From: Elusimicrobiota bacterium
GTDB lineage: Bacteria > Elusimicrobiota > Elusimicrobia > UBA1565 > UBA9628
Assembly: GCA_016194705.1 (NCBI GenBank)
Contig: JACQAZ010000015.1
Location: forward strand, 4,771 to 68,770
Reading direction: 5' to 3'
DNA length: 64,000 nt
Shown here: positions 1-38,619 of the stretch, one piece after another
Position numbering within the stretch: the stretch's first letter is position 1
How the letters are laid out: each line of letters begins with the position of its first letter
Made by a program: the position numbers and the translations under genes
The notes under the pieces: generated by a model
Databases searched by the model: none
Seen by the model: only the letters and a program-made list of their open reading frames with translations
Told to the model about the DNA's origin: nothing

Positions 1-1862
1 TGCCACTGGTCGTAGCGCTTCATGCGCTCGCGCGCGGCGCGCTCGGACTCGGGGTTCATGTAGGCCACGAAGCCGCGGTAGAGCAGCTGCGCTCCGTAGT
101 CGGTCTCTTTCATGACCCGCGGCACGGCCCGGCGCTCGGATTGCGACATCCCTCGGCCGATCTCCTGCAGGGCCCAGGCGGTCTCCTTGAGGCGCGTCAT
201 CTCGGACTCGGTCAGCACGCTGTAGGAGAGAGCCGCGAAGAGCAGGTCCGCGTGTTCCGCCGGCACGAAGAGGAAGATCCGGAACAGGGGATCCTGCTGC
301 GCCATGAGCAGCAGGCGTCCGGGACCGAAACAATTGCGCACGTCCTGCTGGGAGACCCCCCAGGTCTTCTGGACCTTGTCGATCACGGCTTGATCGTCGA
401 CCATGTCGGAGAGCAGGTAGAGCGGCACGCCCGCCTGGTGGTTGCGGCGGACGAACTCGGAGAACAGCCCGAGGGCTCGGAGCCGCGGGTAGCGGTCGAG
501 ATAATACTCGAGGACCTCGCGCGTGCGGTGGGCGAAGTAGGGCAGATAGACCTTCGCGTTCGGAAAGCCCAAGCCCGAGAGGATGATCCAGCTCGAGGCG
601 ACGGTGTGGTCCCGCACGAACAGGCTGCGCTGGTAGCCCACGTTGTTTTCGAGTTTGCTCTGCGGGAGGATCCCTTCGCCGAAATTCCAAGCTCCCAGGC
701 AGGCGACGGCGAGGGCGCCGGCGCAGAGAGTCGGGGGCCTCAGGCCCGGGCCCGATTCGAACGCCTCGCGGGCCGCCAGGGCCAGCACCGCGATTCCCGC
801 GGCGCACGGCACGGTCCAAAAATAGACGCCTCCATGCCAGAAGGCGTCGAGAACGACGAAGAGGCCTCCCCAGAGGGCGAGGATCACGAGTTGGGCGCGC
901 CTGGCGGGCCGCCGTCTCCAGAGCCAGACCGACGCGCCGAGCAGAGAGGCCGCCAGAGCCCCCCCGCCCGCCACGGCCGGAAGGCGCGCGGCCCAAGGAC
1001 AGGCCGCGACGGCGAGCAGGGAGGCGGCGAGCACATCGGCGACCGGAAGCCCGCGCCCCGCGAAGAAGCCCAGCAGATGCGACCAGCCGCCGCCGGAGGT
1101 CGCGTGGACGTCGGCCGCCTCGGAGAAGAACGCGAACAGGCTGCGCGCGTCGCCCAGCCGAAAGGCGAGCGCGTAGGGCGCGGCGACGCCCAAAGCGAGC
1201 GCCGGCGCCAGCCACCAGGCCGGGCGCCCTCGTCGGCCGCGCCAGGCCGCCCAGACCGCCGCCGCCGCCATGGGCACCAGAGCCGCGTCGGCGGCGTGGA
1301 ACAGCACGCCGGTCACGAGGCTGCCGCCGAGCAGGCCGGCCGCCGTCGGCGTGCCCTCCTCGGCCAGGCTCAGAGCGCAAGCCCCCGCGGCCAGGGCCCA
1401 AAAGGTCATCATCATGTAGACCTGGCCCTCGGTCGCCCGGCTCCAATAGCTGAACGAGACCGCCAGCGCCGCGGCGCCCAAGGCCGCCAGCGCGCGATCG
1501 CGCGTGAGCCGAAAGAGGAGACGGAAATAGACCGCCGCGCCGAAGAGCCCGAATACGGCGTTGATCCTCTGGATCAGGACATAGGCGCGCGTCGGCAGCC
1601 CGACGAGGGCCAAAGCGTCGCGCAGGCCCATCACGAAGGGGTTGAAGAGCAGATGGCGTCTGTTGAAGACCTCCCGGCGCCATTCGTCGACGGCGCGCTC
1701 GATGACGCCGGAGAACATGATGCCGTCGAAGACGTACACCTTGTCGGGAAATCCGAGGTAGAGAGCCAGAAGGACGAACACGGCCGCTCCCGCGGCGCGC
1801 AGGAGCCACGCGTCCGGGGCTGCCGCGGGAGCCTGCCGTGCGTTGGGCGCAGCGACCTTCAC
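1..1862 (-). CDS. Polytopic membrane protein, GT-C fold glycosyltransferase-like (ArnT/PMT-like); partial, C-terminus beyond the window start
   Basis: Minus-strand reading frame open from a GTG at 1860-1862 to the window edge, so the ORF track did not report it. My hand translation gives many hydrophobic helices (for example AGLLGGSLVTGVLF, LAVSFSYWSRATEGQVYMMMTFWALAAG) and a C-terminal soluble region. The nearest in-frame upstream stop is at 1941-1943. The plus-strand 1530-aa ORF covering this region is its antisense artefact. Confidence 0.6.
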   Translation of the reverse strand, partial: MKVAAPNARQAPAAAPDAWLLRAAGAAVFVLLALYLGFPDKVYVFDGIMFSGVIERAVDEWRREVFNRRHLLFNPFVMGLRDALALVGLPTRAYVLIQRINAVFGLFGAAVYFRLLFRLTRDRALAALGAAALAVSFSYWSRATEGQVYMMMTFWALAAGACALSLAEEGTPTAAGLLGGSLVTGVLFHAADAALVPMAAAAVWAAWRGRRGRPAWWLAPALALGVAAPYALAFRLGDARSLFAFFSEAADVHATSGGGWSHLLGFFAGRGLPVADVLAASLLAVAACPWAARLPAVAGGGALAASLLGASVWLWRRRPARRAQLVILALWGGLFVVLDAFWHGGVYFWTVPCAAGIAVLALAAREAFESGPGLRPPTLCAGALAVACLGAWNFGEGILPQSKLENNVGYQRSLFVRDHTVASSWIILSGLGFPNAKVYLPYFAHRTREVLEYYLDRYPRLRALGLFSEFVRRNHQAGVPLYLLSDMVDDQAVIDKVQKTWGVSQQDVRNCFGPGRLLLMAQQDPLFRIFLFVPAEHADLLFAALSYSVLTESEMTRLKETAWALQEIGRGMSQSERRAVPRVMKETDYGAQLLYRGFVAYMNPESERAARERMKRYDQW

Positions 1863-2174
1863 CCTATCGTGATAGCAATTCGAGCAGGGTCTTCGCCAGG
1901 CGGCGCCGCTCGACCTCGTCGCGCAGGCGCACCTCCGCGCTCACGAAGCCGTCGCCGTCGCTCTCGACCCAGACCACCTCGGCGGGCAGATCCCGGAAGC
2001 GCTCGTCGGCCAGCACGAAGCTCAGCAAGACCCGCTCGTGGCGCGAGAGCCGGGTCTGCGTCGAGACGACCGCGCTCGCGGCGCAAAGCTCCTCGAGCCG
2101 CCCCCAGCCCTCGACGCGCCCCGACTCGGGCGGGAAGCGCAGCAGGACGGGCGCCTGGGCGCCGCGCGCGCGCC

Positions 2175-3329
2175 TCATTTGAGCCCGAGAATCGAGTGGC
2201 GGTAGACGCGCGCCGGTCCGGACTCCTTCGGGATGGTCTCGCCCACGCTCCAGAAGCGCTCTCCGTCCCAGGCCAGGCCGACGGGACGGTGACGGCCATC
2301 CTGGTATTCGGCCAAAGATATCTTTTCGACGGCCTCGTCGGGCCGCTCGAGGTTGTGGCGCACCAGCTCGCGGTTGCCCGCGTCGAGCGACCACAGGGAG
2401 CGCCCGTCCCAGACCAAAGCGGCTGGAGAGCTTCCCGGATACTTGTAGGAGGCCACGGTGGAGAGATCGGCATCCAGGAGATGCTTGTGGATCTTGTGCT
2501 GGCGCGAGTCGCAGGTCCAAACGTAGAGACCGTCGAAGGCCATGCCCAAAGTGTTGGGAGCGGCATCCAGATAGGTCTGAACGGGGGTGAGCTTGTCGTC
2601 CTTCATGCGGCGGTCGATGCGGCCCGAGGCCGAGACCGTCCAGACCGCGTCGGCCCCGAAGGCGAGCGCGACGGGCGTCTCGTCGGTGAAATGGACGATC
2701 CGGTCGAGGACCAAAGTGGCGGGGTCGTGCGAGTAGAGCGACTGGGTGTACCAGTCCGCGACCCACAGCCGTCCCGCGTCGAAGGCCATCCCCGCGGGAT
2801 GTCTTGTCGGCAGGTCCCAATGGTCCTTGCGCGCGAGCGCCTCCTGGCGCTGCCGCTGCTGGCGCTGCAGCGACAGCGTCCCGAAGGCCGCCGCGAAAAA
2901 GGCCAGCACCGCGAAGAAGTAGACGGCCGCGCTCGGCCGGCGCGGCATCCGCGCGACCGAGTACGCCGTCCCCGGCAGACGCGAGGCCTTCGCAAGGCAG
3001 GCCGAGAGCGCCTCCCGCGTCCACGGCGGCGCGACCACCTCGGCGGCGCCCGTGCGCATCAGGCGCACCGCGCGCGTCGCGTCGCGCTCGGTCAGCGCGA
3101 CGACGACCGGCATGAGCGGGGCGACCCTCAGGATCTCGCGCAGGAGGGCCTCGGCGTCGCTCTGCGGGGAATCGACGATCAGCATGAGCCGCGGCCGGCT
3201 TTCCCGCAGCAGCTCGACGGCCTCGGGCAGCCGGGCGACCCCGCGGACCTGGTGGCCGGCCTCTCCCGAGATGAGGGCGAGCGTCTCGCGGTCCGAGGCG
3301 TCGCCGCAGAGCAAGCCGATGGCGGCCAT
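2175..3329 (-). CDS. Response-regulator receiver-like domain + TM segment + β-propeller (glutamine-cyclotransferase-like repeats) protein
   Basis: 384 aa. N-terminal REC-like segment, a hydrophobic stretch (AAVYFFAVLAFFAAAFGTL), then a C-terminal region with repeated G.A.DG..LW blade-like motifs. Three nt separate it from the next minus-strand gene. Confidence 0.6.
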   Translation of the reverse strand: MAAIGLLCGDASDRETLALISGEAGHQVRGVARLPEAVELLRESRPRLMLIVDSPQSDAEALLREILRVAPLMPVVVALTERDATRAVRLMRTGAAEVVAPPWTREALSACLAKASRLPGTAYSVARMPRRPSAAVYFFAVLAFFAAAFGTLSLQRQQRQRQEALARKDHWDLPTRHPAGMAFDAGRLWVADWYTQSLYSHDPATLVLDRIVHFTDETPVALAFGADAVWTVSASGRIDRRMKDDKLTPVQTYLDAAPNTLGMAFDGLYVWTCDSRQHKIHKHLLDADLSTVASYKYPGSSPAALVWDGRSLWSLDAGNRELVRHNLERPDEAVEKISLAEYQDGRHRPVGLAWDGERFWSVGETIPKESGPARVYRHSILGLK

Positions 3330-3332
3330 GGC

Positions 3333-4709
3333 CTAGGGCTTCGGGGGCTTCGGGATCACGAACTCCGAGCCCTCCTGGGGGAGTCCGCGCTCGACCTTGT
3401 CGCGGTTGGCGTCATAGATGAGCTCCCAGAGGTTGCCGTCGCCGTAGAAGGTCTTGGCCATCGAGCGCAGTGTCTCTCCGGGCTTGACCACGTGGCGCTG
3501 CGGCCACGACGGCTTCTTGGGCGGCGGAGGAGGGCGGATGATCGGCGGCGCGCGCTTGGGCGCCTTGCGCGCCGCTTCGTCGAGCTCGGACTCCTTGAGG
3601 CCGAACTCCGCCTCCTCCTTCTTTCTCTGCAGCCCGCGGTATTCCTCGCCGACCTCTTTGACCCTTTGCTCGAGCACGCCGAGCTCGGCCTCCGAAATCT
3701 GGCGGTGGGTCTCCGCGGTCGCGGCCTCCTCGTCGGCCGCCTTCTTGCGCTCGGCGAGCTTCTCGATCTCGGACTGCAGCGACTGGGCCGAGCTCGCCGC
3801 CGAGCCCACGAAGTTGCCCGTAAACGACGGCGCTCCGAAGCGCCAGCTGGCGCTCATCTGGAAGCCGCCCCCGGGCCGGTGGATTCCTCCCGAAGGCAAG
3901 GTCATCGCGAAATCCAGGACCAAGGGGGAGAGGTTGAAGCCGAGCCCCCAGGCGAACTGGCTGACCCCGTCGAGCTGGAAGCCGCGCCCGGCGCGGACCT
4001 TGAGCATGCCCTCGTAGAACGACGCCTCGACGCCCGGGTAGAAATCCGTCAAGTTCTGGCGGATCTTGGTGTCGGCCGCGATGGTGAGCCACTTGTGCCA
4101 GACATAGGCGAGGCCGAAATTGAACTTGGGGCGCGGCTGCCCGACGTTGGTGACGAGGTCGCTCATGACGGCCGAGCCGCTCAGCCCGAAATTGCTGCGC
4201 GCCAGCACGCCGAAGTCGAGCCCCATGCCGAACAGGCTCGAGCTCCCCGGATGGCCTTCGTTGATGTTGAGGAATTTCCAGTCTCCGCCGACCTTGAGCG
4301 GCTTGGTCAGCAGGAGCTGGGGGACCTTGATCTCCTGAGAATAGTTGAACCTCAGCTCGTCCTTGTCGCCCCCGTTGAGCTGGCGGATCGACATGTAGGC
4401 GCCGCCGACCGTGGCCGTGTTGATCAGCTCGAAGGGGCGCATGTAGGCCATCGCGGCGTAGGACATCGTCCCGACCGGCGAGAGCTGCCGCCCGACGCTG
4501 GCGCTGGCCTGCGCGTAAGGGGTGTTGGCGGGCCCCCCCGGGTTGAAGAACAAGGCGTAGGCGTCGTCGGCCACGGCCGAATAGGCCATGCCCATGCCCA
4601 TGGCCTTGGCGCCCGGCGCGAAGTCGTCGAAATCGGCGGCCGAACAGGGCCAAGCCGCGGCCAGCGGCAGGAAAGCGGCAAGCAGGCGCGCGAATCCTCT
4701 GAGGGTCAT
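3333..4709 (-). CDS. Outer-membrane β-barrel-like protein with a coiled-coil segment and C-terminal LysM domain
   Basis: Signal peptide MTLRGFARLLAAFLPLAAAWPCSAA (start chosen at the internal Met; the ORF track start is 4757). Gly/aromatic-rich β-strand region, then a charged coiled coil (EIEKLAERKKAADEEA...), then a C-terminal LysM-like segment VVKPGETLRSMAKTFYGDGNLWELIYDANRDKV. Confidence 0.6.
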   Translation of the reverse strand: MTLRGFARLLAAFLPLAAAWPCSAADFDDFAPGAKAMGMGMAYSAVADDAYALFFNPGGPANTPYAQASASVGRQLSPVGTMSYAAMAYMRPFELINTATVGGAYMSIRQLNGGDKDELRFNYSQEIKVPQLLLTKPLKVGGDWKFLNINEGHPGSSSLFGMGLDFGVLARSNFGLSGSAVMSDLVTNVGQPRPKFNFGLAYVWHKWLTIAADTKIRQNLTDFYPGVEASFYEGMLKVRAGRGFQLDGVSQFAWGLGFNLSPLVLDFAMTLPSGGIHRPGGGFQMSASWRFGAPSFTGNFVGSAASSAQSLQSEIEKLAERKKAADEEAATAETHRQISEAELGVLEQRVKEVGEEYRGLQRKKEEAEFGLKESELDEAARKAPKRAPPIIRPPPPPKKPSWPQRHVVKPGETLRSMAKTFYGDGNLWELIYDANRDKVERGLPQEGSEFVIPKPPKP

Positions 4710-4760
4710 TCCGTGCGGATTATAGCTAAATAACATTACGCGAATATTACCAAGCAATAC

Positions 4761-4789
4761 TTGACTTATCCAACATCTCCTGCAATAAT
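4761..4789 (+). promoter_or_regulatory. Candidate σ70 promoter, probable leaderless transcript for the gene starting at 4796
   Basis: TTGACT (4761-4766), a 17-nt spacer, AATAAT (4784-4789), and the ATG at 4796 only 6 nt downstream. No Shine-Dalgarno sequence is present. The region is AT-rich and intergenic, between divergent genes. Confidence 0.45.
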
Positions 4790-4795
4790 CAAAGT

Positions 4796-5680
4796 ATGGA
4801 CGAGGCGCAGCCCCCCCCGCAGCGACGCAGCTGGCTCGCAGCCCTCCTGGTGGTCCTGGCGATCGGAGGCTCCGCGGTCGGGGTCTTCATCTATCAGCTC
4901 CTGCAGGGCAACCGCAAGTCGAGCCTCGACGCCTCGGGGTTCGACATCGCCCAAACGACCGACAATACGCCTCGCCCGACCTCGACGCCGGTCGCGCAGC
5001 CCCAGTCCAGCCTGGGAGTCATCAGCACCGGACTTTCGGGCATCCACTTCGGCAGGACCGCGGGCCCCGGAGGCACCCCGGCGCAGCAGGCCGAAGACGC
5101 GGCCTCGAAGGCCGCCGAGACCTTCTCGCAGCTCTGCGTCAGGAACGAGGCCAAGGTTCGGTCCTTCGCTGAGAAATACACCAAGCAAAGCCCGACTCTC
5201 CAGAAGTACGGAAGAGAGTGGATGAGCTACCCGGACCTCAAGAAGCTCAACGACGACTACATGCGCAACCACGACCCCATCGCCTTCCTGCGCGGCTTGA
5301 CCCAATCCGCGAACTTCCCGAAGCTGGTCAAGAAGTACGCGGGAGATTCCTCGATGCAGGGGTTCGTCCGCGACGGGATGAAGCAGACCCCTCCCGAGCT
5401 TCTGAACTCGGGGATCAGCTACATGAACAAGGACAACGTCGTCAAGCAGCTCGTCACCAAGGTCATGGAAAGTCTCGGGATCCCCGCGATGGCGCTGGGC
5501 GCGGCCCCGGGAGCGGGGCAGCTCGACCCGGCCAAGATCATGGGCTCCGTCCTGGGGAACAATCCCCAGCTCCAAAAGGCGATGGAGAGCAACCCCGAGA
5601 TCCAGAAGAAGCTGCAGAACAACCCGGGACTCAAGCAAAACCTTCAGGAAGCCAACCAACTGCAGCAGCAGAGCCGCTGA
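4796..5680 (+). CDS. Membrane-anchored hypothetical protein (N-terminal TM, Gln/Asn-rich C-terminal tail)
   Basis: 294 aa, with a TM anchor WLAALLVVLAIGGSAVGVFIY. No recognisable catalytic motifs. Followed by a hairpin at 5698-5719. Confidence 0.55.
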   Translation: MDEAQPPPQRRSWLAALLVVLAIGGSAVGVFIYQLLQGNRKSSLDASGFDIAQTTDNTPRPTSTPVAQPQSSLGVISTGLSGIHFGRTAGPGGTPAQQAEDAASKAAETFSQLCVRNEAKVRSFAEKYTKQSPTLQKYGREWMSYPDLKKLNDDYMRNHDPIAFLRGLTQSANFPKLVKKYAGDSSMQGFVRDGMKQTPPELLNSGISYMNKDNVVKQLVTKVMESLGIPAMALGAAPGAGQLDPAKIMGSVLGNNPQLQKAMESNPEIQKKLQNNPGLKQNLQEANQLQQQSR

Positions 5681-5758: not shown

Positions 5759-6025
5759 CTATTTCGAGATGCTCAACGGCGGAGCCTGGCTGGTCGAGGC
5801 CGTCCCTGAACCGCCGCCCCCGCCGCCCCCCGTATTCGAGTTGGCGACGCACGTGTTGCCCACCTGGTGCGTGCCTTGTCCGCAAGTCAAGGTCGAAGTG
5901 TTCGTGCCGGGAGCAGGCTGGCTTCCGCCGCCGCAGCCGCCGCCGCTGCCGCCCCCGCAAGCCAACGTCCCCGCCAGGGCGAACGCGAACCACACGGCCG
6001 TCGCCTTAAGAATATTCTTTTTCAT
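5759..6025 (-). CDS. Small secreted Gly/Cys-rich protein, paralog A (C-x9-C GTHQ motif)
   Basis: Start taken at MKKNILK, preceded by a strong SD (AGGAGGAGG). Signal/lipoprotein-like N-terminus ending LAGTLAC. Contains the motif CGQGTHQVGNTCVAN. Its upstream region is homologous to that of paralog B. Confidence 0.6.
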   Translation of the reverse strand: MKKNILKATAVWFAFALAGTLACGGGSGGGCGGGSQPAPGTNTSTLTCGQGTHQVGNTCVANSNTGGGGGGGSGTASTSQAPPLSISK

Positions 6026-6146
6026 TGCCTCCTCCTCACTCGACATAGTTTACGGCCGTGGACCCATCCTGTCAATAGGAAACTCTGAATTTTATTGAAG
6101 TTTTACCAAAAGCGGCAAATCCACGAATTCCCCAGTAAAATACTTG

Positions 6147-6431: not shown

Positions 6432-7280
6432 TCAAGCCTCAGCGGCGCACAGCCGGCGATGCGTCGCCTCCGCGGCGAGCAGGCTCGCGGCGCACAGCAG
6501 CGCGCTGGCGGCGATGTCGACGAGGAAGTGCCAGCCCAGCAGCAGGGTCGACAACACGACGAGTCCGTTGAGCAGCGCGACGGGAACGAAGAGCCGCCGG
6601 TCGGCCGCGGCGGCGTAGGTCAACAGGATGGCCCATACGGCGTGGAATGAGGGCAGCGCCACCATCCCCCCCATGAGAGTCGTGACCTCCTGGAAGTGGT
6701 GGACCTGATGGAATTTCAAGGACGTCAACCGCTGCTCGGGTGAGAAGAGTTCGCCGGGGAGTATGCTCGCCGGCCCCGAACTCGGGAAAAGATAGTAGAA
6801 CAACCCTCCCACGATGTAGGAATACGCGACGGCGTAGAGGAACACCCGCGTGCGGCGGCGATCGAGGAAGAGATCGGCCGCCAGCGGCACGAGGAAGAGC
6901 TCGAGGTTCAAGGCCGGATAGCTGGCGCGCATCAGCGACCACAGCCAGGGGCGCGCGAAGCTCCAGGACATCGCGCCCGTGACGGAGACGCCAAGGCGCG
7001 AGTCCCACGCCGCGATGCGCGCGTCGATCGGCGAAAACGGCGTGAACTGGATCGCGCTCGTCATGACCGACACGGCCGAGGCGAGCAGCAGGAAGCCTGA
7101 GTAGTTGCGCAAGACGAAGGCCGCGCGGGCGTCGAGCCCGCGCGCGTACGCGGCGAACGCGGCCACCTCGAGCAGCGGCGCGATCAGGGCGATCGCGGGC
7201 CGCGGAAAATAGGAGATCCCCGTGAAGTGGAACCACAGCGCGTTGATCCCGATGAGCGCCGCCGAGACCGCGAGCATCAT
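6432..7280 (-). CDS. PAP2-superfamily integral membrane phosphatase-like protein
   Basis: 282 aa, polytopic. PAP2-like motifs LPSFHAVWA and GWHFLVDI. Confidence 0.7.
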   Translation of the reverse strand: MMLAVSAALIGINALWFHFTGISYFPRPAIALIAPLLEVAAFAAYARGLDARAAFVLRNYSGFLLLASAVSVMTSAIQFTPFSPIDARIAAWDSRLGVSVTGAMSWSFARPWLWSLMRASYPALNLELFLVPLAADLFLDRRRTRVFLYAVAYSYIVGGLFYYLFPSSGPASILPGELFSPEQRLTSLKFHQVHHFQEVTTLMGGMVALPSFHAVWAILLTYAAAADRRLFVPVALLNGLVVLSTLLLGWHFLVDIAASALLCAASLLAAEATHRRLCAAEA

Positions 7281-7316: not shown

Positions 7317-8225
7317 TCACAGGTGCGCTTGGAAGTCCCGGGAGATCATTCCCGGGACCCAGAATAGGTGCAGGATCGCCGTGTAGTGGCCCAACGGCAG
7401 CCAGACCTGGCGGCTGAGCGGAAAGGCCGCCTTGAGCTTCAGGGCGTTGGCCCTGGGCACGACGGTGTCCCAGCGCACGTTGACGAGCAGCGCCGGCTTG
7501 CCCGCGTTGGCCGCCGCGTAATCCGTCGGGTCGAGCCCCGCCATGGCGGGCCGAAGCGCTGCGGGATCGATGCGGGACCTGCGCAGGAACGGCTCGGTCA
7601 TCGAGCTGTGGCCGATGAGATCGGGAAAATCCGCGCCGCCGAGCATGAAGACGGCGTACTTCGGAGCCGGGTCGACCGAGTAGGCGGCGGCCGCGACCAT
7701 CGCCCCGAGGCTCACGCCGAAGAGCCCGATGCGGCCGCGGTCGACCTCGGGGCGGCTCGAGAGCCATGCCAGGGCGCGCCTGGCGTCGAGCGCCGATTGG
7801 CGGAAGTTGAAGGCGAGCCTCTTGGCCGTGCGCGCGAGGAAGACTTGGCCGCTCGGCTGGGAGGAATCGGGACGGCGGTGGAACTGGTAGGGCATCTCGA
7901 GCCAAAGGACCCCGAAGCCGTCGCGCCGGAAGCGCTTCATGAAGCGCTCCTCGATCCAGATGTTGGGCGCGGCCATGACCGGCAGCACGAGAATGCACGG
8001 ATGGACGCCGGAGGAGTCAGGTACAGAGTAATGGGCCCAGACGGTATCGTTGGCCGCAAAAGGGCTCTTGAGAGGGGATGGGAACTTGACCTCGTACTCG
8101 ACGCGTCCATCGCGGCGAGAGACCTCGCGCAGCTCGGCCCGGACCGGGGCCTTGGCGTCGTAGTCGAGCGGCGAGGACGGCGCCGCGCCGGCGGCCGTCG
8201 CGAGCAGGAGCGCCGCCGCGAGCAT
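7317..8225 (-). CDS. α/β-hydrolase (dienelactone-hydrolase-like), secreted
   Basis: Signal peptide. Nucleophile elbow GVSLGA (G-x-S-x-G). Abuts the upstream OMP gene (8225/8226). Confidence 0.75.
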   Translation of the reverse strand: MLAAALLLATAAGAAPSSPLDYDAKAPVRAELREVSRRDGRVEYEVKFPSPLKSPFAANDTVWAHYSVPDSSGVHPCILVLPVMAAPNIWIEERFMKRFRRDGFGVLWLEMPYQFHRRPDSSQPSGQVFLARTAKRLAFNFRQSALDARRALAWLSSRPEVDRGRIGLFGVSLGAMVAAAAYSVDPAPKYAVFMLGGADFPDLIGHSSMTEPFLRRSRIDPAALRPAMAGLDPTDYAAANAGKPALLVNVRWDTVVPRANALKLKAAFPLSRQVWLPLGHYTAILHLFWVPGMISRDFQAHL

Positions 8226-9662
8226 CTAGAAGCCCATGGCCATCGCAAACGCGATCTGGTAGATGTCGACCAAGCCGATCGAGGTCAGCGAACGCGTGGA
8301 GGCGTCTCCCATGGTCCAATAGGAATATTCGGTCTTGAAGTTGAAATGGTCGGTCAGCTGGTAGTTGAGGGCCGCCGTGAACTTGTTGATGTGCGTGCTC
8401 CCGCGGTACGCGCCCGCCCCTTCCGCCTGGATCGAGGGGAAGGTCGTGCCGGAGATGACCTGATTGAGGAACAGGTCCAGCAGCGGGCCGCGCCGGAACA
8501 TCTGGTTGAACACGAGGACCCCCGTGACGCGCTCCCCCCAGGGCGGCTTGCGGATCAGCGGGAAGGAGGTCTGGATGAAGTAGCCTTGGTTGGTCTCGAA
8601 GTCCTTGACCATGCTGACCGGCAGGGCGATGGCGCCGAAATTTTCGAGCGGGGAGAGGAACTGGTTGAAGCCGTAGACGTACTCGGCGGAGACGTTGAAG
8701 CCGCGGTAATCGAAGGTCAGGTCCGCCGCGTAGGTCTGGTAATTGAGATGGCCTTCCAGATCGTACTGTCCCCCCATCCCCGCGAGGCCCAAATTCATGC
8801 CGGTGACGTCGAGGATGCCCTCGGGCACCGGCCAGGGGAACCGCACGTCCCCGAGCGAGAACACGGCGCGCCCGCCGAAGGACTTGTAGTTGTTGTTGTC
8901 GGCGAGGTTGTTGTTCTGGTGGCCGAAATCGATGTTGGAGCCGTTGCCCGGCACGCCCGGGATGCCGAGGAAGTCCGTGTTCGGGAAGGTGCGCTGGCGG
9001 TTGTTGTTCTCTCCGAGGCCGTTGACCACGAAAAACGTGATTTCGGAGGGAAGGTAGGGATTCTTGCTCGGGGGATACCAGGTGGCGCGCGCGCCGAGGT
9101 CCGTGTAGCCCACGCTGACCGGCGGGCGCGGCGAGTTGACGCGCACGACGAGGTCGAGGCTGTCTGGCGAGGCGTACAGAAGCGGGCGCGTCACGGTCAA
9201 GAAATCGTTGGCGCGGTAGAGCTCGTTGTAGCGGCTGAAGGGGACGAGGAACTGCCCGAACTGAAACGTGAAATCCTCGATGCGGTTGTAGGAGAAGTTG
9301 AGCTGATAGAGCTGCAGCGAGCCCTGTCCCGCGGTCGGCATGTGCCATTCGACTTGGAGCGGGACCCCGTCGATGAACGGTCCTTCGAGCCCGAAATACA
9401 TGTCCGCGAGGTAGATCTCGTTCTGGATCTGGGTCTCGAAGCCGGGCCGGCGCGGGCCCACGTTGCGCCAGTTGAGCGAGAGGCTGCCCCGCACGTGCAT
9501 CCGTGAGAGCCTTTGCAGGAACTCGTTGGTGTAGACGGCCGCCGGAGACGGCGCCGCGAGGTGCTCGGCCGAGCCCGGAGAAGCCAGCGCGGCCAAAGTC
9601 CAGAGGGCAAGCGCCGCGCGTTGACAGCATTTCGCAAATGAGTTATGATGACGGTGGCGCAA
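8226..9662 (-). CDS. Outer-membrane β-barrel (porin-like) protein
   Basis: 478 aa with a signal-like N-terminus (TTG start in the ORF track, so the exact start is uncertain). Aromatic/Gly-rich alternating pattern and a terminal Phe (…AMAMGF) typical of an OMP C-terminus. Confidence 0.6.
   Translation of the reverse strand: MRHRHHNSFAKCCQRAALALWTLAALASPGSAEHLAAPSPAAVYTNEFLQRLSRMHVRGSLSLNWRNVGPRRPGFETQIQNEIYLADMYFGLEGPFIDGVPLQVEWHMPTAGQGSLQLYQLNFSYNRIEDFTFQFGQFLVPFSRYNELYRANDFLTVTRPLLYASPDSLDLVVRVNSPRPPVSVGYTDLGARATWYPPSKNPYLPSEITFFVVNGLGENNNRQRTFPNTDFLGIPGVPGNGSNIDFGHQNNNLADNNNYKSFGGRAVFSLGDVRFPWPVPEGILDVTGMNLGLAGMGGQYDLEGHLNYQTYAADLTFDYRGFNVSAEYVYGFNQFLSPLENFGAIALPVSMVKDFETNQGYFIQTSFPLIRKPPWGERVTGVLVFNQMFRRGPLLDLFLNQVISGTTFPSIQAEGAGAYRGSTHINKFTAALNYQLTDHFNFKTEYSYWTMGDASTRSLTSIGLVDIYQIAFAMAMGF
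9621..9649 (+). promoter_or_regulatory. Canonical σ70 promoter upstream of the ferredoxin gene
   Basis: TTGACA (9621-9626), a 17-nt spacer, TATGAT (9644-9649). Implies a ~55-nt leader with an RBS GAAGGGGGAA before the ATG at 9711. Lies inside the 5' end of the minus-strand OMP ORF. Confidence 0.5.
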
Positions 9663-9710: not shown

Positions 9711-10025
9711 ATGGCTCACGTGATCGGCGAAGCGTGTCTCGGCGAGGTCTACGCGGCCTGCGTCGACGTCTGCCCGGTGGAGTGCATCCATCCCGGCGAC
9801 TATCAGAATGCAAAGATGATGATCATCGATCCGGAGGTGTGCATCGATTGCGGCGTGTGCCTGCCGGAATGCCCGATCGGAGCCATCGTGGGCTCGGTCG
9901 ACGAGAACCCCGAGTGGGCCAAGATCAACGCGGAGCTGACCCCGACTTTCAAGGGCAACCCGAAGCTCACGCCCCGGCCGCCGAACGATCCTCCGCACAA
10001 GCCGACCAACAAGCTCGTCAAGTAA
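9711..10025 (+). CDS. fdxA: 7Fe-type ferredoxin (two Cys clusters)
   Basis: 104 aa with CxxxxxxCxxxCP and CIDCGVCLPECP cluster motifs. Promoter, RBS and terminator are all present. Confidence 0.85.
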   Translation: MAHVIGEACLGEVYAACVDVCPVECIHPGDYQNAKMMIIDPEVCIDCGVCLPECPIGAIVGSVDENPEWAKINAELTPTFKGNPKLTPRPPNDPPHKPTNKLVK

Positions 10026-10043
10026 TTGGCTGTTGCGCGGCCT

Positions 10044-10095
10044 GAAGAAGCCGGTCCCGCGCGCTGTACGCGCGGGGCCGGCTTCTTTCTTGCTA
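10044..10095 (+). terminator. Rho-independent terminator after the ferredoxin gene
   Basis: 20-bp stem GAAGAAGCCGGTCCCGCGCG / CGCGCGGGGCCGGCTTCTTT with a 5-nt loop, followed by a T-rich tract (TTCTTTCTT). Confidence 0.75.
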
Positions 10096-10097
10096 TC

Positions 10098-12005
10098 ATG
10101 GCCTTGTCCCCCCCCGTGCGCGCGATGAGCTACACCGTGGTCCACCGCACCCGCCTCGACACCGCCTCCTGCGAGACGCAGGGGCTCGTGCGCGTGCCCT
10201 TCGAGCAGGGCCTCTTCAAGACCACGGCGGCCTCGGCGACGCTCCAGTCGGGCGTCATCGAGACGCCGGCCCCGTTCGACGACCTCGTCGGCTCGTGGAA
10301 CGCGAAGATCCCCCCGCTGGCCGGGCTCAAGATGCAGGCCCGCGTGCTCGTGGGCTCCGAATGGTCGGGATGGTTCGACTTGGCCGCGGTGGGCAAGGAC
10401 GGCTTCGAGTCGGTCGAGAAGCAGGAGAACGATTTCGGCTTCGTCGACGTCGACACCCTCAAGCTCAAGAAGCCCGCCAAGGCCTTCCGCTATCGCTTCC
10501 TGCTCTCGGCGCCCTCCCGGGCCGTCGTGCTCCGCCTGGCCGCCATGACGGTCTCCAACGCCGAGGTCCCGGACTTGGCCCCTTTCCAGCCGGGGCCGTG
10601 GGTGACCGAGCTCAAGGCGCGCCCGCGCTCGCAGACTGTCGAGCAGGAGAAATACAAGCACGACATCTGCAGCCCGACCTCGCTGTCGATGGTCCTCGAG
10701 TTCTGGGGCGACCGCCTGCCGACCGTCGAGGTCGCGGAAAGAGTCCGCGATCAGAAGACCGCCATCTTCGGGCATTGGCCCTTCAACGCGGCCGTCGCGG
10801 GCGACCTCGGCCTCGAGTCCTACGTCGCCCGGCTCGACGGCATGGAGGACCTTCAGGAAGAAATCGCCCAAGGCCGCCCCGTCGTGGTGAGCCTGACCTA
10901 CGGCGAGGGCGAACTCAAGGGCTCGCCGATCAAGAAGACCAAGGGCCATCTCCTCGTGGTCGCCGGCTTCGACTTCAAGGGCGACGTCATCGCGCTCGAC
11001 CCGGCCGCGCCGCCCGACTCCGTGCGCCGCGTCTACGACCGCAAGGAGTTCTGGAGCGCCTGGCGTCTCAAGAAGCGGGGCCTGGCTTATCTGGTCGGCC
11101 CCTTGAAGGGGCGCAAGCTGACCGTCGGCGTGCCGGTCATGGACTTGATGGCCAAGGCCCGCCAGCGCAAGAAGGTCGAGCTCGACGACCCGGAGCACCT
11201 CTCGCAGCTGCTCTACGGCGAACGCGTGACCGTGACCGCGGTCAAGGCCGGCTGGGTCCACGTTCTCGCCGACGAGCAGCTCGACTTCTTCGAGGACGAC
11301 AAGTGGGAGGGCTACCCCGGCTGGATCGACGCCGACTCCTTGATGTTCGATCCCCCGCCCAAGCCCAACGTGCTCGTGCGCACCAAGCAGGCCCTCGTCC
11401 AGCGCGGCAGCGACATGATGCTGCTCTCGGTCGGCACCCGCCTGCTGCGCGTCTCGCAGGACAAGGACGTCTCCACCCTGCGCCTCCTCGACGGCACGAC
11501 CGCCGAGATCGCCTCCGACGCGCTCACGAGCCCGCCCGAGCAGGTCAGCGACGAGAGCCGCGCGATGATCATCAAGACCTCCGAGCTCTTCCTGGGGACC
11601 TCGTACTACTGGGGCGGACGCTCGGGCGTCGAGCCCGACCTCTCGGTGGGCGTCGACTGCTCGGGCCTGGTCAGCCTCTCCTACCGCATGCACGGCATGG
11701 ACATCCCGCGCGACTCGCACGAGCAGAAGCTCAAGGCCAAGCCCATCGACAGCAAGGACATGAAGCCCGCCGACCTCGTGTTCCTGACGGAGCCCGGCGA
11801 CAACAAGCGCATCACGCATGTGATGATCTTCACGGGCGGCGACGGCGTCATCGAGAGCCGCAAGTCCTCGGGGCGCGTGCTGCGCTCGTCCTTCAAGGAA
11901 CGCTTCGGCAAGACGCTCCTCGAGATCAAGTCCGGCGACGAGGTTACCGACCTCTCCTTCTCCCGCCCCAAGAAGCGGCTGATCTACTTCGGCAGCTACT
12001 TCTAA
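10098..12005 (+). CDS. Multidomain peptidoglycan hydrolase: peptidase C39-like + SH3-like + C-terminal NlpC/P60
   Basis: C39-like segment KHDICSPTSLSMVLEFWGD. C-terminal NlpC/P60 signature GVDCSGLVSLSYRMHGMDIPRDSHEQ…ITHVMIF (Cys and His). Start taken at the ATG at 10098, after the upstream terminator. Confidence 0.8.
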   Translation: MALSPPVRAMSYTVVHRTRLDTASCETQGLVRVPFEQGLFKTTAASATLQSGVIETPAPFDDLVGSWNAKIPPLAGLKMQARVLVGSEWSGWFDLAAVGKDGFESVEKQENDFGFVDVDTLKLKKPAKAFRYRFLLSAPSRAVVLRLAAMTVSNAEVPDLAPFQPGPWVTELKARPRSQTVEQEKYKHDICSPTSLSMVLEFWGDRLPTVEVAERVRDQKTAIFGHWPFNAAVAGDLGLESYVARLDGMEDLQEEIAQGRPVVVSLTYGEGELKGSPIKKTKGHLLVVAGFDFKGDVIALDPAAPPDSVRRVYDRKEFWSAWRLKKRGLAYLVGPLKGRKLTVGVPVMDLMAKARQRKKVELDDPEHLSQLLYGERVTVTAVKAGWVHVLADEQLDFFEDDKWEGYPGWIDADSLMFDPPPKPNVLVRTKQALVQRGSDMMLLSVGTRLLRVSQDKDVSTLRLLDGTTAEIASDALTSPPEQVSDESRAMIIKTSELFLGTSYYWGGRSGVEPDLSVGVDCSGLVSLSYRMHGMDIPRDSHEQKLKAKPIDSKDMKPADLVFLTEPGDNKRITHVMIFTGGDGVIESRKSSGRVLRSSFKERFGKTLLEIKSGDEVTDLSFSRPKKRLIYFGSYF

Positions 12006-13501: not shown

Positions 13502-15373
13502 ATGCTCACCGCTCTTCTGGTCATCGCGCTCTCACCCGCCCACGCGGCCTTCCCGGCCGTGGAGCGCTCGACGGCGGCCATCGCGGTCGTCTACCCGACC
13601 GAAGGCGAGGTCCTGCCGATGATGGAGGGCGAGTTCGTCCTGGGCTCGGTCTCCGACCCGAAGGCCCCCTTCAGCATCAACGGCGCCAGCGTGACGGTGC
13701 ACCCGGACGGAGCTTATCTCGCCTGGCTCGCCCTCAAGCCCGGGACCTTCACGATCCACTGCGAGCTGGCCCTGAAGGAAGGCGCGGTCGGCTACACCCG
13801 CACGATCGTCATCACCCCGCCGCCGGCGCCGCTGCCCGACAAGCCGCTGGCCATCGACAAGGACTCCATTTTTCCCAAAGCCGACCTGGAGCTGCGCGCC
13901 GGCGACTGGCTCATCGCGAAGCTCAAGTCCTCGCCGGGCGCCAAGGTCAAATACCGCCTCCCGAAGAAATCTTGGCAGCCCATGGCCGAGGTCAATCCGG
14001 CGCTGGGGCTCTACGAGGGCGTCTACCAGGTCCAGCCCGGCGACGAGATGTCTCCAGCGCAGATCGAGTTCCAAGCGGGATCCGGCTGGTCGGCCATCTC
14101 GGCCAAGAGCCAGGGCAAGGCCGCCTTTCTCTCGGGAGCCCCTCCGATCGCTGTGGTCAAGGGCAACGGCGCAGCCCGCCTCAAGACCGGTCCGGGGGAG
14201 GGCGAGCTCTTCCCCGGCGCCAACGGCATGCGCTTCATCGTCGCCGGCCGCTTGGGCTCGGAGGTCAAGCTCCAGCTCCCTAACGGCGAGGCCGCCTGGC
14301 TCGAGGCGAAATACCTCGAGTTCCAGCCTCAGGGGACGGCGCCGCCGCGGGCGGCCACCGACGTCATCTCCGTCAAGGCGGGCGACAACTCGACCGTCGT
14401 GCACATCGGGCTGACCGATCGCGTGCCCTTCCGCGTCGACGAGGCCGAGGACGGCCGCTCGCTGACGGTGAGGATCTACTACGCCTGGGCGCACACCAAC
14501 TGGGTCGTCTACGCCGACGAGGACCCGCTCGTGCAGGAGGTGCGCTTCAAGCAGGAGAACGCCGACACCGTGGCGGTCACGGTCCGCCTGAAGCCCGACC
14601 AGAATCTCTGGGGCTACCACGCCTCTTATGAAGGAAGCGCCGTCCGCCTCGAGCTGCGCCGCGCCCCGCGCCTGGCTCCGGCCCCGGCGTCCGCGCTCGA
14701 GGGCGTCGCGATCTTCGTCGACCCCGGCCACATGCCCTCCGCTCCGGGCGCGATCGGACCGCTGGGCACTCGCGAGATGGACGTCAATTACGCCATCGCC
14801 AAGGCGCTCGAGGAGAAGCTGACCAAGCAGGGCGCCAAGGTCTTCATGAGCCGCAAGAACCCCGAGGACGAGGTCGGCCTGCCGGAGAGGCCGCGACAAG
14901 CCTGGGAGAAGCGAGCGGACCTCTTCATCAGCGTGCACAACAACTTCATGGGCGACGGCTCCAATCCCTTCAAGGGACCGCCCCACGGCTCTTCGGTCTT
15001 CTACTATCATCCGCACAGCCTCGCTTTGGCCCGCGCTGTCTACCAGGCCTACGACGGCCGCGTGCCCCTGCCCGGCGAGGCCCTGCGCTTCGGCGACCTC
15101 TTGGTAGCGCGCATGACCGAGATGCCCGCGATCCTCACCGAGTCGGCTTATCTGCTCTTCCCGGAGCAGGAGGCCCTGCTGCTCGACGCCCGGTTCCGCG
15201 ACAAGATCGCCTCTGCGATCGCCGTCGGAACGAGGAGATTCCTCGAGACCGAACGCCAGCACCAGGGAGTCAAGCCCGCCAAGAGGGCGGCGCCCCCGGC
15301 GGCGACGGCGCCCGCTCCGGCGCCGCCCAAGCCGCGCAAGGGCAAACGCAGGAAGAAGGAAATCCCGGCGTGA
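13502..15373 (+). CDS. N-acetylmuramoyl-L-alanine amidase (Amidase_3, AmiC-like) with N-terminal accessory domains
   Basis: Signal peptide. Catalytic-domain motifs IFVDPGHMPSAPGA, DLFISVHNN and AILTESAYL. Confidence 0.85.
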   Translation: MLTALLVIALSPAHAAFPAVERSTAAIAVVYPTEGEVLPMMEGEFVLGSVSDPKAPFSINGASVTVHPDGAYLAWLALKPGTFTIHCELALKEGAVGYTRTIVITPPPAPLPDKPLAIDKDSIFPKADLELRAGDWLIAKLKSSPGAKVKYRLPKKSWQPMAEVNPALGLYEGVYQVQPGDEMSPAQIEFQAGSGWSAISAKSQGKAAFLSGAPPIAVVKGNGAARLKTGPGEGELFPGANGMRFIVAGRLGSEVKLQLPNGEAAWLEAKYLEFQPQGTAPPRAATDVISVKAGDNSTVVHIGLTDRVPFRVDEAEDGRSLTVRIYYAWAHTNWVVYADEDPLVQEVRFKQENADTVAVTVRLKPDQNLWGYHASYEGSAVRLELRRAPRLAPAPASALEGVAIFVDPGHMPSAPGAIGPLGTREMDVNYAIAKALEEKLTKQGAKVFMSRKNPEDEVGLPERPRQAWEKRADLFISVHNNFMGDGSNPFKGPPHGSSVFYYHPHSLALARAVYQAYDGRVPLPGEALRFGDLLVARMTEMPAILTESAYLLFPEQEALLLDARFRDKIASAIAVGTRRFLETERQHQGVKPAKRAAPPAATAPAPAPPKPRKGKRRKKEIPA

Positions 15374-38458: not shown

Positions 38459-38619
38459 GCTCTGTCTCCTTAGATATCGATCGATGTCGTACAAGCTGAG
38501 GGTCCCATTATAAAGGAATGGGGCCTAGCACAAGAGGGCCATATGGGACCGCGATAGGAAGTAAAACGCCCTAGGTCCGGTTAGGACCTAGGGCCTATGA
38601 AAGGGCTGGGAAGTCCGGT

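Follow-up and report, generated by a model that had tools for sequence, protein, structure and literature searches.

How the outer membrane is fastened to the cell wall in diderm bacteria outside the Proteobacteria is an open question, and to our knowledge only four tether types are usually counted (Lpp, Pal, OmpA and OmpM). Two minus-strand genes of an Elusimicrobia MAG, here called A and B, lie 3 nt apart and raise this question at a new locus: what does a predicted outer-membrane barrel ending in a LysM domain do beside a predicted inner-membrane protein carrying a propeller? The initial annotation of this DNA proposed an ‘envelope-spanning signalling or anchoring module’, which we also infer from the architecture of the two proteins and their gene context. 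We put at about one half the probability that A, B and a third gene, C, form a conserved envelope module, in which a wall-pinned outer-membrane anchor has an inner-membrane partner and an ancestral inside-out control has degenerated in the present lineage; the function assigned to it here is a putative one.

The locus

The window, i.e. the whole 64,000-nt stretch of DNA analysed, contains the following features around the pair.

1-1862, minus strand: gene D, >620 aa, continuing past the window edge; multi-TM, GT-C-like protein
1864-2178, minus strand: gene C, 104 aa; degenerate PilZ-fold protein, its ATG overlapping the TGA of B (ATGA)
2175-3329, minus strand: gene B, 384 aa; predicted bitopic inner-membrane protein with pseudo-receiver, TM helix and five-bladed beta-propeller
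3333-4709, minus strand: gene A, 458 aa; signal peptide, predicted 14-stranded barrel, helical stalk, Pro-rich linker and LysM domain
4710-4795: AT-rich intergenic region between A and a divergent 294-aa gene
7317-8225, minus strand: gene for a secreted alpha/beta hydrolase, 302 aa; upstream and co-oriented, weak Pfam and NCBIfam matches
8226-9662, minus strand: gene for a porin-like OMP, 478 aa; upstream and co-oriented, weak Pfam and NCBIfam matches

The open reading frames (3333-4757 for A and 2175-3329 for B, both on the minus strand), the junction, at which the TAG of A (3335-3333) is followed by gcc and then by the ATG of B at 3329, and exact matches to annotated NCBI proteins (HY077_06680 for A and HY077_06675 for B) confirm the gene arrangement given in the initial annotation. 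The ATG at 4709 is the most likely start of A and agrees with the N-termini of its homologues, and both frames have a GC3 of 0.86-0.90, the coding signature of a 67% GC genome. The tight coupling of the pair also stands, but the unit is really a triad with the PilZ-like gene C, which the earlier reading of the pair had missed, and it belongs to a wider cassette (kinase, giant protein) in relatives. A perfect TATAAT on the minus strand at 4724-4719, 9 nt ahead of the ATG of A, is a candidate promoter element. A consensus promoter scan found only one promoter-like site in this intergenic region, on the plus strand at 4761-4789, with nothing called on the minus strand ahead of A, and terminators were not in excess.

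Gene D has the same orientation as C and starts 1 nt after it. Its GT-C-like label is supported solely by a TMEM260-like Pfam match under the cut-off (E 0.015), and an NCBIfam search of D returned no match. The hydrolase has a weak match to RcgR lactone-hydrolase, also under the cut-off (E 6e-14). No paralogues of A, B or C were found elsewhere within the window.

Gene A encodes a predicted barrel-stalk-LysM protein

All single-protein matches of A, B and C to PorV_fam, LysM, Response_reg and PilZ lie under the curated cut-offs, whereas the family profiles give good support. The domains of A are as follows.

4638-4709, minus strand: signal peptide, aa 1-24, MTLRGFARLLAAFLPLAAAWPCSA, probable cleavage after CSA
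3825-4637, minus strand: barrel domain, aa 25-295, from DSSP on the AF2 model and conservation
3564-3824, minus strand: periplasmic stalk, predicted by AF2 as a single helix of 87 residues, aa 296-382
3504-3563, minus strand: linker, aa 383-402, Pro-rich, low-confidence, PKRAPPIIRPPPPPKKP
3336-3503, minus strand: C-terminal LysM domain, aa 403-458, of YgaU/Kbp type

The signal peptide, read by eye, has a basic N-region, a hydrophobic core and a small-x-small site. In the AF2 model (pLDDT 86.3), fourteen strands (aa 66-291) are followed by a helix (296-382) and a beta-alpha-alpha-beta LysM domain (403-455), while the N-terminal segment of the barrel domain (aa 25-65) carries a GA+AMGMG..DD..NPAG motif conserved among 117 homologues. 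The best Foldseek matches of A are PorV (8gl6_F and 6h3i_F, E 3-4e-8, target-normalised TM-score 0.52-0.58), OmpG and FadL, bearing out at the fold level the earlier guess of a PorV/FadL-like barrel. The 14-stranded FadL-like fold is thus present, but A misses the cut-offs of the PorV/PorQ/PorP family models (NF033709 and TIGR03519); the match to PorV_fam (NF033709; E 1.1e-11) covers the N-terminal half only and scores 44.9 bits against a cut-off of 90. In the model, A belongs with the PorV/PorP/FadL class of 14-stranded outer-membrane barrels and is extended by a helix, a linker and a LysM domain.

The LysM fold is complete in the model (strands 404-407 and 449-452, helices 414-422 and 425-434). 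NCBIfam PRK11198 matches it with E 1.7e-5 and Pfam LysM (PF01476) under the cut-off with E 0.056, and the A family profile matches the Kbp LysM with E 2.1e-5 and other LysM proteins with E 0.002-0.005. Wall binding is not universal among LysM domains of the YgaU/Kbp type. The predicted stalk would be ~13 nm long if straight and has a heptad-like hydrophobic register, and the model loses confidence behind it (pLDDT <50 at 382-395). The barrel-to-LysM spacing is 101-112 residues, with a mode of 103-104, in 113/113 measurable homologues (117 aligned), and this conserved length suggests a ruler role similar to that of Lpp; profile matches of the stalk to Lpp itself are faint and non-significant (E 0.25-1). 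Through its LysM tip, the barrel may be attached to peptidoglycan by non-covalent binding, the helix serving as spacer; A would then be an outer-membrane-to-wall tether built like an inverted OmpM. In the literature searched, we found no direct precedent for a tether built of an outer-membrane barrel, a coiled coil and LysM.

Gene B combines a pseudo-receiver with a propeller

2979-3329, minus strand: receiver-fold domain, aa 1-117; D53 kept, Thr position L79, Lys position P101
2832-2930, minus strand: TM helix, aa 134-166, hydrophobic core ~133-153, from the AF2 helix and AAVYFFAVLAFFAAAFGTLSL
2196-2822, minus strand: five-bladed beta-propeller, aa 170-378, with an LW..DW/W..D blade motif

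The domains first proposed for the two proteins (barrel, helical spacer and LysM in A; REC-like domain, TM helix and propeller in B) thus hold at the fold level by AF2 and Foldseek. The (beta-alpha)5 fold of PF00072 is intact in B, and the family profile matches the NtrX REC domain with E 1.5e-8, so the REC assignment has the profile support on which the initial annotation had made it depend. Whether the phospho-acceptor Asp is retained, a point also raised there, has a divided answer. D53 lies at the C-terminal end of strand 48-54, aligns with the acceptor Asp of 3jte and is Asp in 111/118 homologues (Glu in 5), but the Thr/Ser switch position is Leu in 110/118, the conserved-Lys position is Pro in 108/118, and the acidic pair after beta1 that forms the Mg2+ site reads A/S/K/G followed by D/E, leaving only one acidic residue, at position 10. 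The canonical Thr, Lys and acidic pair are present in two distant relatives (L085 and L089). With the acceptor Asp kept but Thr, Lys and one acidic residue lost, canonical phospho-signalling is unlikely here, and judged by its sequence the domain is a pseudo-receiver.

Because the receiver is cytoplasmic and a signal peptide is absent, B would be oriented N-in with its propeller in the periplasm, where it sits directly on the membrane; whether the tip of A reaches it depends on the width of the periplasm. The best structural matches of the propeller are glutaminyl cyclases, which are enzymes, and YjiK, and not TolB. The guess of a Glu_cyclase_2 domain holds in part: the five-bladed fold of type-I glutaminyl cyclases (PF05096) is there, but the sequence relation is not. 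Global and local hhalign of the propeller family against four PDB cyclase sequences gave probabilities of 0.06-0.5%, aligning only one blade, out of register, and leaving the catalytic FGEG motif without a counterpart, and the propeller has no Pfam match to PF05096. We therefore rejected a cyclase function and retain only a fold-level statement.

Gene C is a degenerate PilZ-like third member

C matches Pfam PilZ (PF07238) under the cut-off (E 0.007, 17.1 bits against 22.5), and its homology to PilZ comes from the C-family HMM, which matches Pfam-positive PilZ neighbours of distant B-like genes with E 1.5e-20, 3e-13 and 6e-12. The c-di-GMP-binding motifs have decayed. RxxxR occurs in only 5/72 proteins, and the first position of the second motif, (D/N)xSxxG, is E/K/R/S, the window protein reading EELCAAS. 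Both motifs are present in the PilZ proteins of the distant loci L087, L075 and L077.

A-B-C is syntenic in 74 species

Synteny of A-B-C extends over 74 Elusimicrobia species representatives. In 74/74 of these close loci A immediately precedes B, the two being separated by -4 to +36 nt (median 1), and C lies downstream of B in 68/72, with a B-C overlap of -4 in 58/72. Together with 9/10 distant loci (below), this establishes A and B as conserved neighbours, the second point on which the initial annotation had made its proposal depend. Around the triad, the gene after C is usually gcvT/gcvH (38/59 loci), the 294-aa upstream gene is kept in 41/61, and the upstream porin-like OMP and hydrolase are found in 26/49 and 29/49, respectively. 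A homologue search of the 74 close loci found no kinase gene within the operon or close to it, and no type-B-CTD-like protein or motif was found in the window or in ~1.2 Mb of close loci.

The adjacent GT-C glycosyltransferase had also been pointed out. Gene D does adjoin the module here, with its sub-threshold TMEM260-like match, but by tblastn over the 74 loci such a gene lies near A-B-C in 2/57 loci with room for it (5 if partial matches are counted). It is thus not a conserved neighbour, and we rejected it as a functional partner; D is lineage-specific context only.

Distant relatives carry a wider cassette

Distant A-like proteins were collected by a HMMER search over 1.84 billion proteins. 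Of 30 clusters looked up, five carry an organism name (four Elusimicrobia, one Firestonebacteria), and two others are titled ‘LysM repeat protein’. The distant A-likes match PorV_fam over their full length at 50-70 bits, under the cut-off, and one matches PorP/SprF with E 1.5e-6, also under it. From a small sample of 10 loci, mostly without taxonomy, 9 (L081-L083, L085-L089 and the P0274 locus) have an A-like barrel gene followed by a B-type propeller gene; the latter matches the B HMM with E 4e-10 to 2e-45. At the remaining locus, from Firestonebacteria, no B-type gene was seen beside the A-like barrel, and three distant B+PilZ loci are without an adjacent A. The cytoplasmic part of the distant B-types varies (receiver, coiled coil, TPR or none), and in L082 the propeller protein has a lipoprotein-type signal, which supports a periplasmic propeller.

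Several of these loci carry components in canonical form. L085 and L089 have canonical kinase-receiver pairs (Response_reg 104 bits; HisKA + HATPase_c), and L087, L075 and L077 have canonical PilZ. L087, from a sister lineage, retains the kinase gene with Gln in place of the phospho-His, suggesting that decay of the relay preceded loss of the kinase gene. In some distant loci a giant neighbour protein ends in FTPNGDG..., resembling a T9SS type-B CTD (CHU_C 35.7 bits against a cut-off of 27; TIGR04131 E 1e-7 to 9e-6). A motif search of the window and all loci found such ends only in L084-L086, and the end of the L089 giant was recognised by eye.

Proposed function and alternatives

From these data, A and B probably form an uncharacterised envelope-spanning anchor. 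The periplasmic propeller of B may be the partner of A, by analogy with the PorE propeller/TPR protein and the PorP barrel, so that A and B together would connect both membranes with the wall, and the cytoplasmic receiver of B may dock C. The cassette of the relatives (kinase, canonical receiver, canonical PilZ and often a giant type-B-CTD-like protein) implies that the ancestral module probably held or handled a surface protein at the outer membrane, with phosphorylation and c-di-GMP exerting control from the inside out. The lineage of the window has lost both the kinase and the cargo gene beside the module, its phospho-switch and c-di-GMP motifs have decayed, and the module is most likely a constitutive structural anchor or scaffold here.

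An uptake-and-processing pair, which we think unlikely, would make A a wall-anchored FadL-type channel for a hydrophobic compound and the propeller of B a periplasmic enzyme (glutaminyl-cyclase-like or lactonase-like) acting on the import, together with the syntenic hydrolase and porin-like OMP. The resemblance of the A barrel to FadL and OmpG fits such a channel, and about half of the close loci retain the two upstream genes in synteny; in L083 both share a single operon with A-like and B-like genes, and in L082 the hydrolase does likewise. However, the propeller's hhalign probability against the cyclases is below 1% with no counterpart of FGEG, and an enzyme role accounts neither for the varying cytoplasmic part of B and the kinase or PilZ genes next to it nor for the conserved stalk and LysM.

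It is distinctly unlikely that B is a working response regulator, in which an unlinked histidine kinase would phosphorylate D53 and the signal would cross the membrane to the propeller and alter A, as true inside-out two-component signalling. The conserved D53, the acidic residue at position 10, the intact fold and the canonical receivers beside kinases in relatives agree with it, whereas the Leu and Pro at the switch and Lys positions, the single Mg-binding acidic residue, the lack of a linked kinase in all 74 close loci and the Gln-bearing L087 kinase, as a sign that the relay decayed first, argue against it.

We regard as very unlikely a Tol-Pal-like role in outer-membrane constriction or stabilisation at division sites, with the B propeller acting as TolB and the A LysM as Pal. 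A periplasmic propeller beside a wall-binding outer-membrane component does parallel the domain logic of TolB-Pal, and PorE has been recast as a compact Tol-Pal (PMC12204202), but the B propeller has five blades and its best matches are not TolB, TolQ/R/A-like genes are absent beside the module in close loci (an ExbB/ExbD pair appears at L077, the only distant B locus showing one), and Elusimicrobia already possess Tol-Pal (PMC12204202). That A and B adjoin through inherited gene order without a functional link is scarcely credible and already disfavoured: the close loci all belong to one Elusimicrobia clade in which synteny alone can keep neighbours, as with gcvT/gcvH after C, but A-B-C are coupled at the codon level and the pairing of A with a B-type propeller persists at HMM E 1e-38 to 1e-45 and GC 26 to 70% where all other neighbours have changed.

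Returning to the anchoring module, we tentatively extend it to a broader picture, which is possible but doubtful. Elusimicrobia and Firestonebacteria might anchor surface proteins by an as yet undescribed system, a relative of the PorP/PorE branch of type IX secretion. Its parts would be a giant type-B-CTD-like adhesin, a PorP/PorV-like barrel fitted with a stalk and a LysM wall anchor, and a response regulator that spans the membrane and has a periplasmic propeller as output; the adjacent kinase and a PilZ protein would drive this regulator. Such an inside-out two-component switch, outside the FCB superphylum, would control what stays attached at the outer membrane, and the window triad would be its stripped-down, signalling-dead descendant, now a structural tether between the outer membrane, the wall and the inner membrane.

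A barrel-stalk-LysM protein would add a fifth design to the four tether types, and the ruler hypothesis suggested by the constant length of its stalk can be tested directly. A response regulator with a periplasmic propeller output would reverse the usual direction of two-component signalling, and with type-B-CTD-like giants beside PorV/PorP-like barrels in both Elusimicrobia and Firestonebacteria, T9SS-type cargo anchoring would no longer be confined to Bacteroidota. Together with the canonical and degenerate versions, the set of 74 syntenic species would be a natural series for a signalling device decaying into a scaffold.

Comparison with known systems

The PorP/SprF-PorE-type-B-CTD complexes of the Bacteroidota T9SS (PMC9143113) similarly combine a PorV/PorP-class barrel, a periplasmic propeller (with or without TPR) and a peptidoglycan-binding domain, and PorP-PorE is a precedent for pairing a barrel with a periplasmic propeller (PMC9143113, PMC12204202). 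In both, the barrel gene adjoins the propeller-protein gene, and in relatives of A it also adjoins the gene of a giant type-B-CTD-like protein. The wall binder here, however, is LysM instead of OmpA_C and belongs not to the propeller protein but to the barrel protein, where a long helix joins the two domains; PorE is a lipoprotein of the outer membrane, but B has an inner-membrane anchor and carries a receiver on the cytoplasmic side; and the host is an Elusimicrobia member, with no CTD cargo nearby in the window. In the literature searched, we found no T9SS described for Elusimicrobia.

In the OmpM/SlpA tethers of Negativicutes and Deinococcus (PMC10628300, PMC9388160), a single polypeptide likewise has a beta-barrel in the outer membrane, an extended helical stalk in the periplasm and a wall binder; OmpM has been proposed to act as both tether and channel. 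A lacks the SLH domain, trimeric coiled coil and C-terminal porin barrel of this type: its order is inverted, with the barrel N-terminal and the binder C-terminal, the binder is LysM instead of SLH, and its barrel is a 14-stranded FadL/PorV-type barrel whereas theirs is a trimeric porin, so that the resemblance is functional only. OmpA shares with A a barrel and a non-covalent peptidoglycan-binding domain but has 8 strands, a short linker and OmpA_C, and Lpp shares with the stalk a helical spacer that sets the distance between outer membrane and wall but is a lipoprotein with a covalent wall link.

For B, type-I (plant/bacterial) glutaminyl cyclases and the C-terminal domain of E. coli YjiK show 11-18% identity to the propeller but lack any similarity at the profile level and offer no catalytic motif that can be aligned, and the cyclases are soluble or secreted enzymes without a TM helix or receiver. 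LapD-type signalling, in which a c-di-GMP receptor controls a giant adhesin at the outer membrane, is alike in logic only: a bitopic inner-membrane protein relays a cytoplasmic second-messenger or phospho input to a periplasmic domain, and the gene cluster also encodes a giant surface protein and an outer-membrane barrel (as in L085, L087 and L089). There is no homology, LapD being HAMP-GGDEF-EAL with a periplasmic LapG-binding domain, whereas the present system consists of a receiver, PilZ and a propeller, with the signalling motifs degenerate in the window.

Gene layout of the A-B-C unit

The initial annotation had described a coupled pair of genes, A (an outer-membrane barrel protein with a stalk and LysM, 458 aa) and B (a receiver-TM-β-propeller inner-membrane protein, 384 aa), beside a GT-C glycosyltransferase gene. 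The gene pair is real, as judged by its coordinates, by the identity of the A and B proteins to the NCBI MAG entries HY077_06680 and HY077_06675 (uncultured Elusimicrobia bacterium, 186-kb contig), and by the high GC3 of frames A, B, C and D, which is that of real genes in this genome (GC of the window ~67%). The limit to two genes did not hold, and the unit is larger, with the PilZ-like gene C as a further member. The genes at this site and on its flank are as follows.

4709..3333, minus: gene A, stop TAG
3329..2175, minus: gene B, starting 3 bases after the TAG of A, stop TGA
2178..1864, minus: gene C, 104 aa, its ATG overlapping the TGA of B as ATGA
GTG start one base past the stop of C, minus: gene D, a long multi-TM, GT-C-like gene extending beyond the window edge
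4796-5680, plus: 294-aa protein divergent to A, membrane anchor at the N-terminus, C-terminus helical and Q/N-rich
6432-7280, minus: PAP2_3-family membrane phosphatase or transferase (Pfam E 2.7e-28)
7317-8225, minus: secreted alpha/beta hydrolase, weak RcgR lactone-hydrolase-family match (E 6e-14, below cut-off)
8226-9662, minus: porin-like outer-membrane protein, 478 aa, weak BBP2 match

Within an AT-rich island of this 67% GC genome, a perfect TATAAT hexamer (4719-4724, minus) precedes the ATG of A by 9 nt, and the A mRNA may be near-leaderless. The consensus promoter scan did not call this hexamer because no -35 element fits. The PAP2_3 gene sits between the hydrolase and a small Gly-rich ORF (5759-6046), and has a homologue near the module in one close locus only (L041).

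Elsewhere in the window, a 659-aa secreted protein (10026-12005, plus) carries Peptidase_C39_2 (E 4e-19), SH3 and NlpC/P60 (E 2e-17) domains. It is a likely cell-wall hydrolase, and its gene neighbours that of a small ferredoxin (9711-10025). The 1822-aa ORF at 22275-27740 (minus) has a good coding signature (GC3 0.89) but matches neither Pfam nor NCBIfam at E ≤0.01, and is a large orphan protein. A 1301-aa protein (34622-38524, minus) matches only LonB-type AAA and lid domains, over residues 778-1005, and its long N-terminal region has no match.

Conservation among close relatives

We surveyed one genome per GTDB species, which returned 76 loci, and in 74 of these B has a clear homologue, at 38-69% identity. 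Almost all carry the label Elusimicrobia, and a few are titled just 'bacterium'. A and B are conserved neighbours, as an A homologue stands directly upstream of B in all 74 loci, at a gap of -4 to +36 nt (median 1). C follows B in 68 of the 72 loci with room for it, with a 4-nt overlap between the two in 58 of the 72. The GT-C-like gene D does adjoin C in the window, but it is not a conserved neighbour of the pair, being present in only 2/57 loci, and the usual genes after C are gcvT and then gcvH. On the other side, the divergent 294-aa protein is kept in 41/61 loci and may therefore be part of the module; in the window it has a weak UBQLN1/STI1-like match (E 4e-5, below cut-off) and no NCBIfam match. 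Farther upstream, the alpha/beta hydrolase (29/49) and the porin-like protein (26/49) are frequent, but not constant. One record titled Candidatus Endomicrobium trichonymphae (L034, CALRXP010000109.1) has an A-B-C set of the high-GC clade at 51-53% identity to the window, and its title may be a binning or naming error.

Architecture of proteins A, B and C

The AlphaFold2 models of A (from a 64-sequence alignment, pLDDT 86) and B (pLDDT 92.7) were divided as follows.

A, N-terminal of aa 25: signal peptide
A, aa 25-65: conserved N-terminal segment
A, aa 66-291: 14 beta-strands (model)
A, aa 296-382: single unbroken helix (model)
A, between helix and C-terminal domain: disordered Pro-rich linker
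A, aa 403-455: beta-alpha-alpha-beta domain (model)
B, aa 1-117: (beta-alpha)5 domain (model)
B, aa 134-166: long helix with a hydrophobic core (model)
B, aa 170-378: five blades from 20 strands (model)

The solved structures nearest to the A barrel are those of PorV, a type IX secretion system (T9SS) protein, then OmpG and FadL, all 14-stranded, and A matches the NCBIfam PorV/PorQ model at E 1e-11, below its cut-off. The C-terminal domain is assigned as a YgaU/Kbp-type LysM by its family profile, which finds the Kbp LysM at E 2e-5 and further LysM chains as well. The helix carries a heptad-like hydrophobic stripe, and the distance from barrel end to LysM is 101-112 residues in 113/113 measurable homologues (117 aligned), as expected of a fixed-length spacer. 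The model, the nearest structures and the LysM profile thus bear out, at fold level, the annotated architecture of a PorV/FadL-like barrel, a helical spacer and LysM.

The receiver assignment of B stands because its family profile matches the NtrX receiver (E 1.5e-8), although the single sequence falls below the Pfam cut-off. A check on the phospho-acceptor showed Asp53 retained in 111/118 homologues, while the Thr/Ser switch position is Leu in 110/118, the Lys position is Pro in 108/118, and only one of the two Mg-binding acidic residues is left. The N-terminal domain is a pseudo-receiver with its Asp retained. Invariant residues of B include W189, W193, D266, Y269, W271, D286, W313, D316, Y342 and W360. 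The annotation had also likened the propeller to Glu_cyclase_2, which holds for the fold but not for the family, as the propeller profile showed no similarity to four glutaminyl cyclase sequences (probability <1%).

Protein C alone is weakly PilZ-like (Pfam E 0.007), and its family HMM matches Pfam-positive PilZ proteins encoded after distant B-like genes at E 1.5e-20 to 6e-12. RxxxR occurs in 5 of 72 family members, and where DxSxxG would have its Asp stands E, K, R or S, the window protein reading EELCAAS; judged by these residues, the c-di-GMP motifs of C are lost.

The module in distant relatives

With the A profile as query, exhaustive HMMER searching gave 95 cluster representatives at E ≤1e-30, many matching across the whole barrel-stalk-LysM length; the few clusters that bear an organism name belong to Elusimicrobia, apart from one Candidatus Firestonebacteria. 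In nine of the ten distant A-like loci inspected, a B-type propeller behind a membrane anchor is encoded at most two positions downstream. The B HMM confirms eight of these (E 4e-10 to 2e-45), and in the ninth, P0274, the partner would be the 391-aa gene between a kinase-like gene and a PilZ gene. The cytoplasmic part of the B-type protein varies: L085 and L089 have a canonical receiver there, and L086 has a receiver plus a coiled coil; the receiver of L087 and L088 is degenerate, L083 has a long coiled coil and L081 a TPR, and in L082 a lipoprotein-type signal is all that stands in its place.

In six loci, a gene for a HATPase_c protein is inserted between A and B. The two loci with a canonical receiver have a kinase with a His box or HisKA domain. 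The kinase-like proteins of L087 (7512-8894) and L081 (7423-8538) consist of a coiled coil and HATPase_c, with the phospho-His replaced by Gln (L087) or Glu/Ser (L081), and their paired B-like proteins have a degenerate receiver or none, so kinase and receiver seem to have decayed together. A PilZ gene closes two of the ten loci, L087 (canonical, Pfam-confirmed) and P0274 (a precomputed match only). In one small subfamily of B that is very distant (22% identity), B goes with a canonical PilZ but no A adjoins it.

The A-like gene abuts a 1500-2100-aa protein in four distant loci (L084, L085, L086 and L089), with ...FTPNGDG...WDG...G.Y.Y....G.V.V at the end of each of these giants. This pattern fits the T9SS type-B sorting domain, at 35.7 bits for CHU_C (cut-off 27) and at E 1e-7 to 9e-6 for TIGR04131, slightly short of the cut-off. 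The comparable 1905-aa neighbour in L081 has faint fn3 and FlgD_ig matches only, and the type-B motif was not found in it. In L088, a called gene of 6092 residues starts a few kb downstream of the A-like/kinase/B-like cassette (15252-15374 and beyond); it may encode another giant surface protein, its C-terminus lying outside the locus. In L083, homologues of the hydrolase and the porin-like protein are in the same operon as the A-like and B-like genes, and the hydrolase gene is directly 5' of the A-like gene in L082, which suggests an older four-gene operon.

Proposed function

Across all these lineages, the unvarying feature is the pairing of a barrel-stalk-LysM protein of A type with a B-type propeller that has a membrane anchor and faces the periplasm, and this is our strongest evidence for joint action in the envelope. 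We propose that A would pin the outer-membrane barrel to the wall, with the B propeller as its putative periplasmic partner, and that the cytoplasmic receiver and PilZ protein (with the kinase in relatives) may formerly have given inside-out control of the anchor and a giant surface protein. The window lineage lacks the kinase and the adjacent cargo, and its two signalling motifs have decayed, which points to a module with a constitutive structural role.

The FadL-like and glutaminyl-cyclase-like folds, together with the syntenic hydrolase, suggest an uptake-plus-enzyme pair, but this reading accounts neither for the stalk and LysM nor for the changing cytoplasmic domains and the absence of glutaminyl cyclase motifs from the propeller. 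An analogue of Tol-Pal is possible in logic, though without support from fold or context. A working phospho-relay through B is unlikely in this organism, since Leu and Pro occupy the switch positions and there is no kinase in the vicinity. Inherited synteny alone is contradicted by the persistence of the A/B pairing where all else has changed.

Comparison with known systems

Literature searches found no paper on the barrel-stalk-LysM architecture, on a receiver-TM-propeller protein, or on T9SS-type cargo or PorP-like anchors in Elusimicrobia. The closest described system to the proposed wall anchor is the PorP-PorE-type-B-cargo complex of Bacteroidota. There, the PorP/SprF outer-membrane barrel holds a surface protein bearing a type-B CTD and also binds PorE, which connects to peptidoglycan through its TPR, propeller and OmpA_C domains, and porP-like and porE-like genes frequently stand side by side (PMC9143113). 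PorE has also been interpreted as a compact Tol-Pal-like tether (PMC12204202). The Elusimicrobia module, as predicted, has the same parts list in another distribution: the wall binder is LysM and is joined to the barrel via a ruler-like helix, whereas the propeller is on the inner membrane, wired to cytoplasmic signalling domains. With its wall binder fused to the barrel through a helix, A resembles an inverted OmpM. The parts are of known kinds; their combination and wiring are new.
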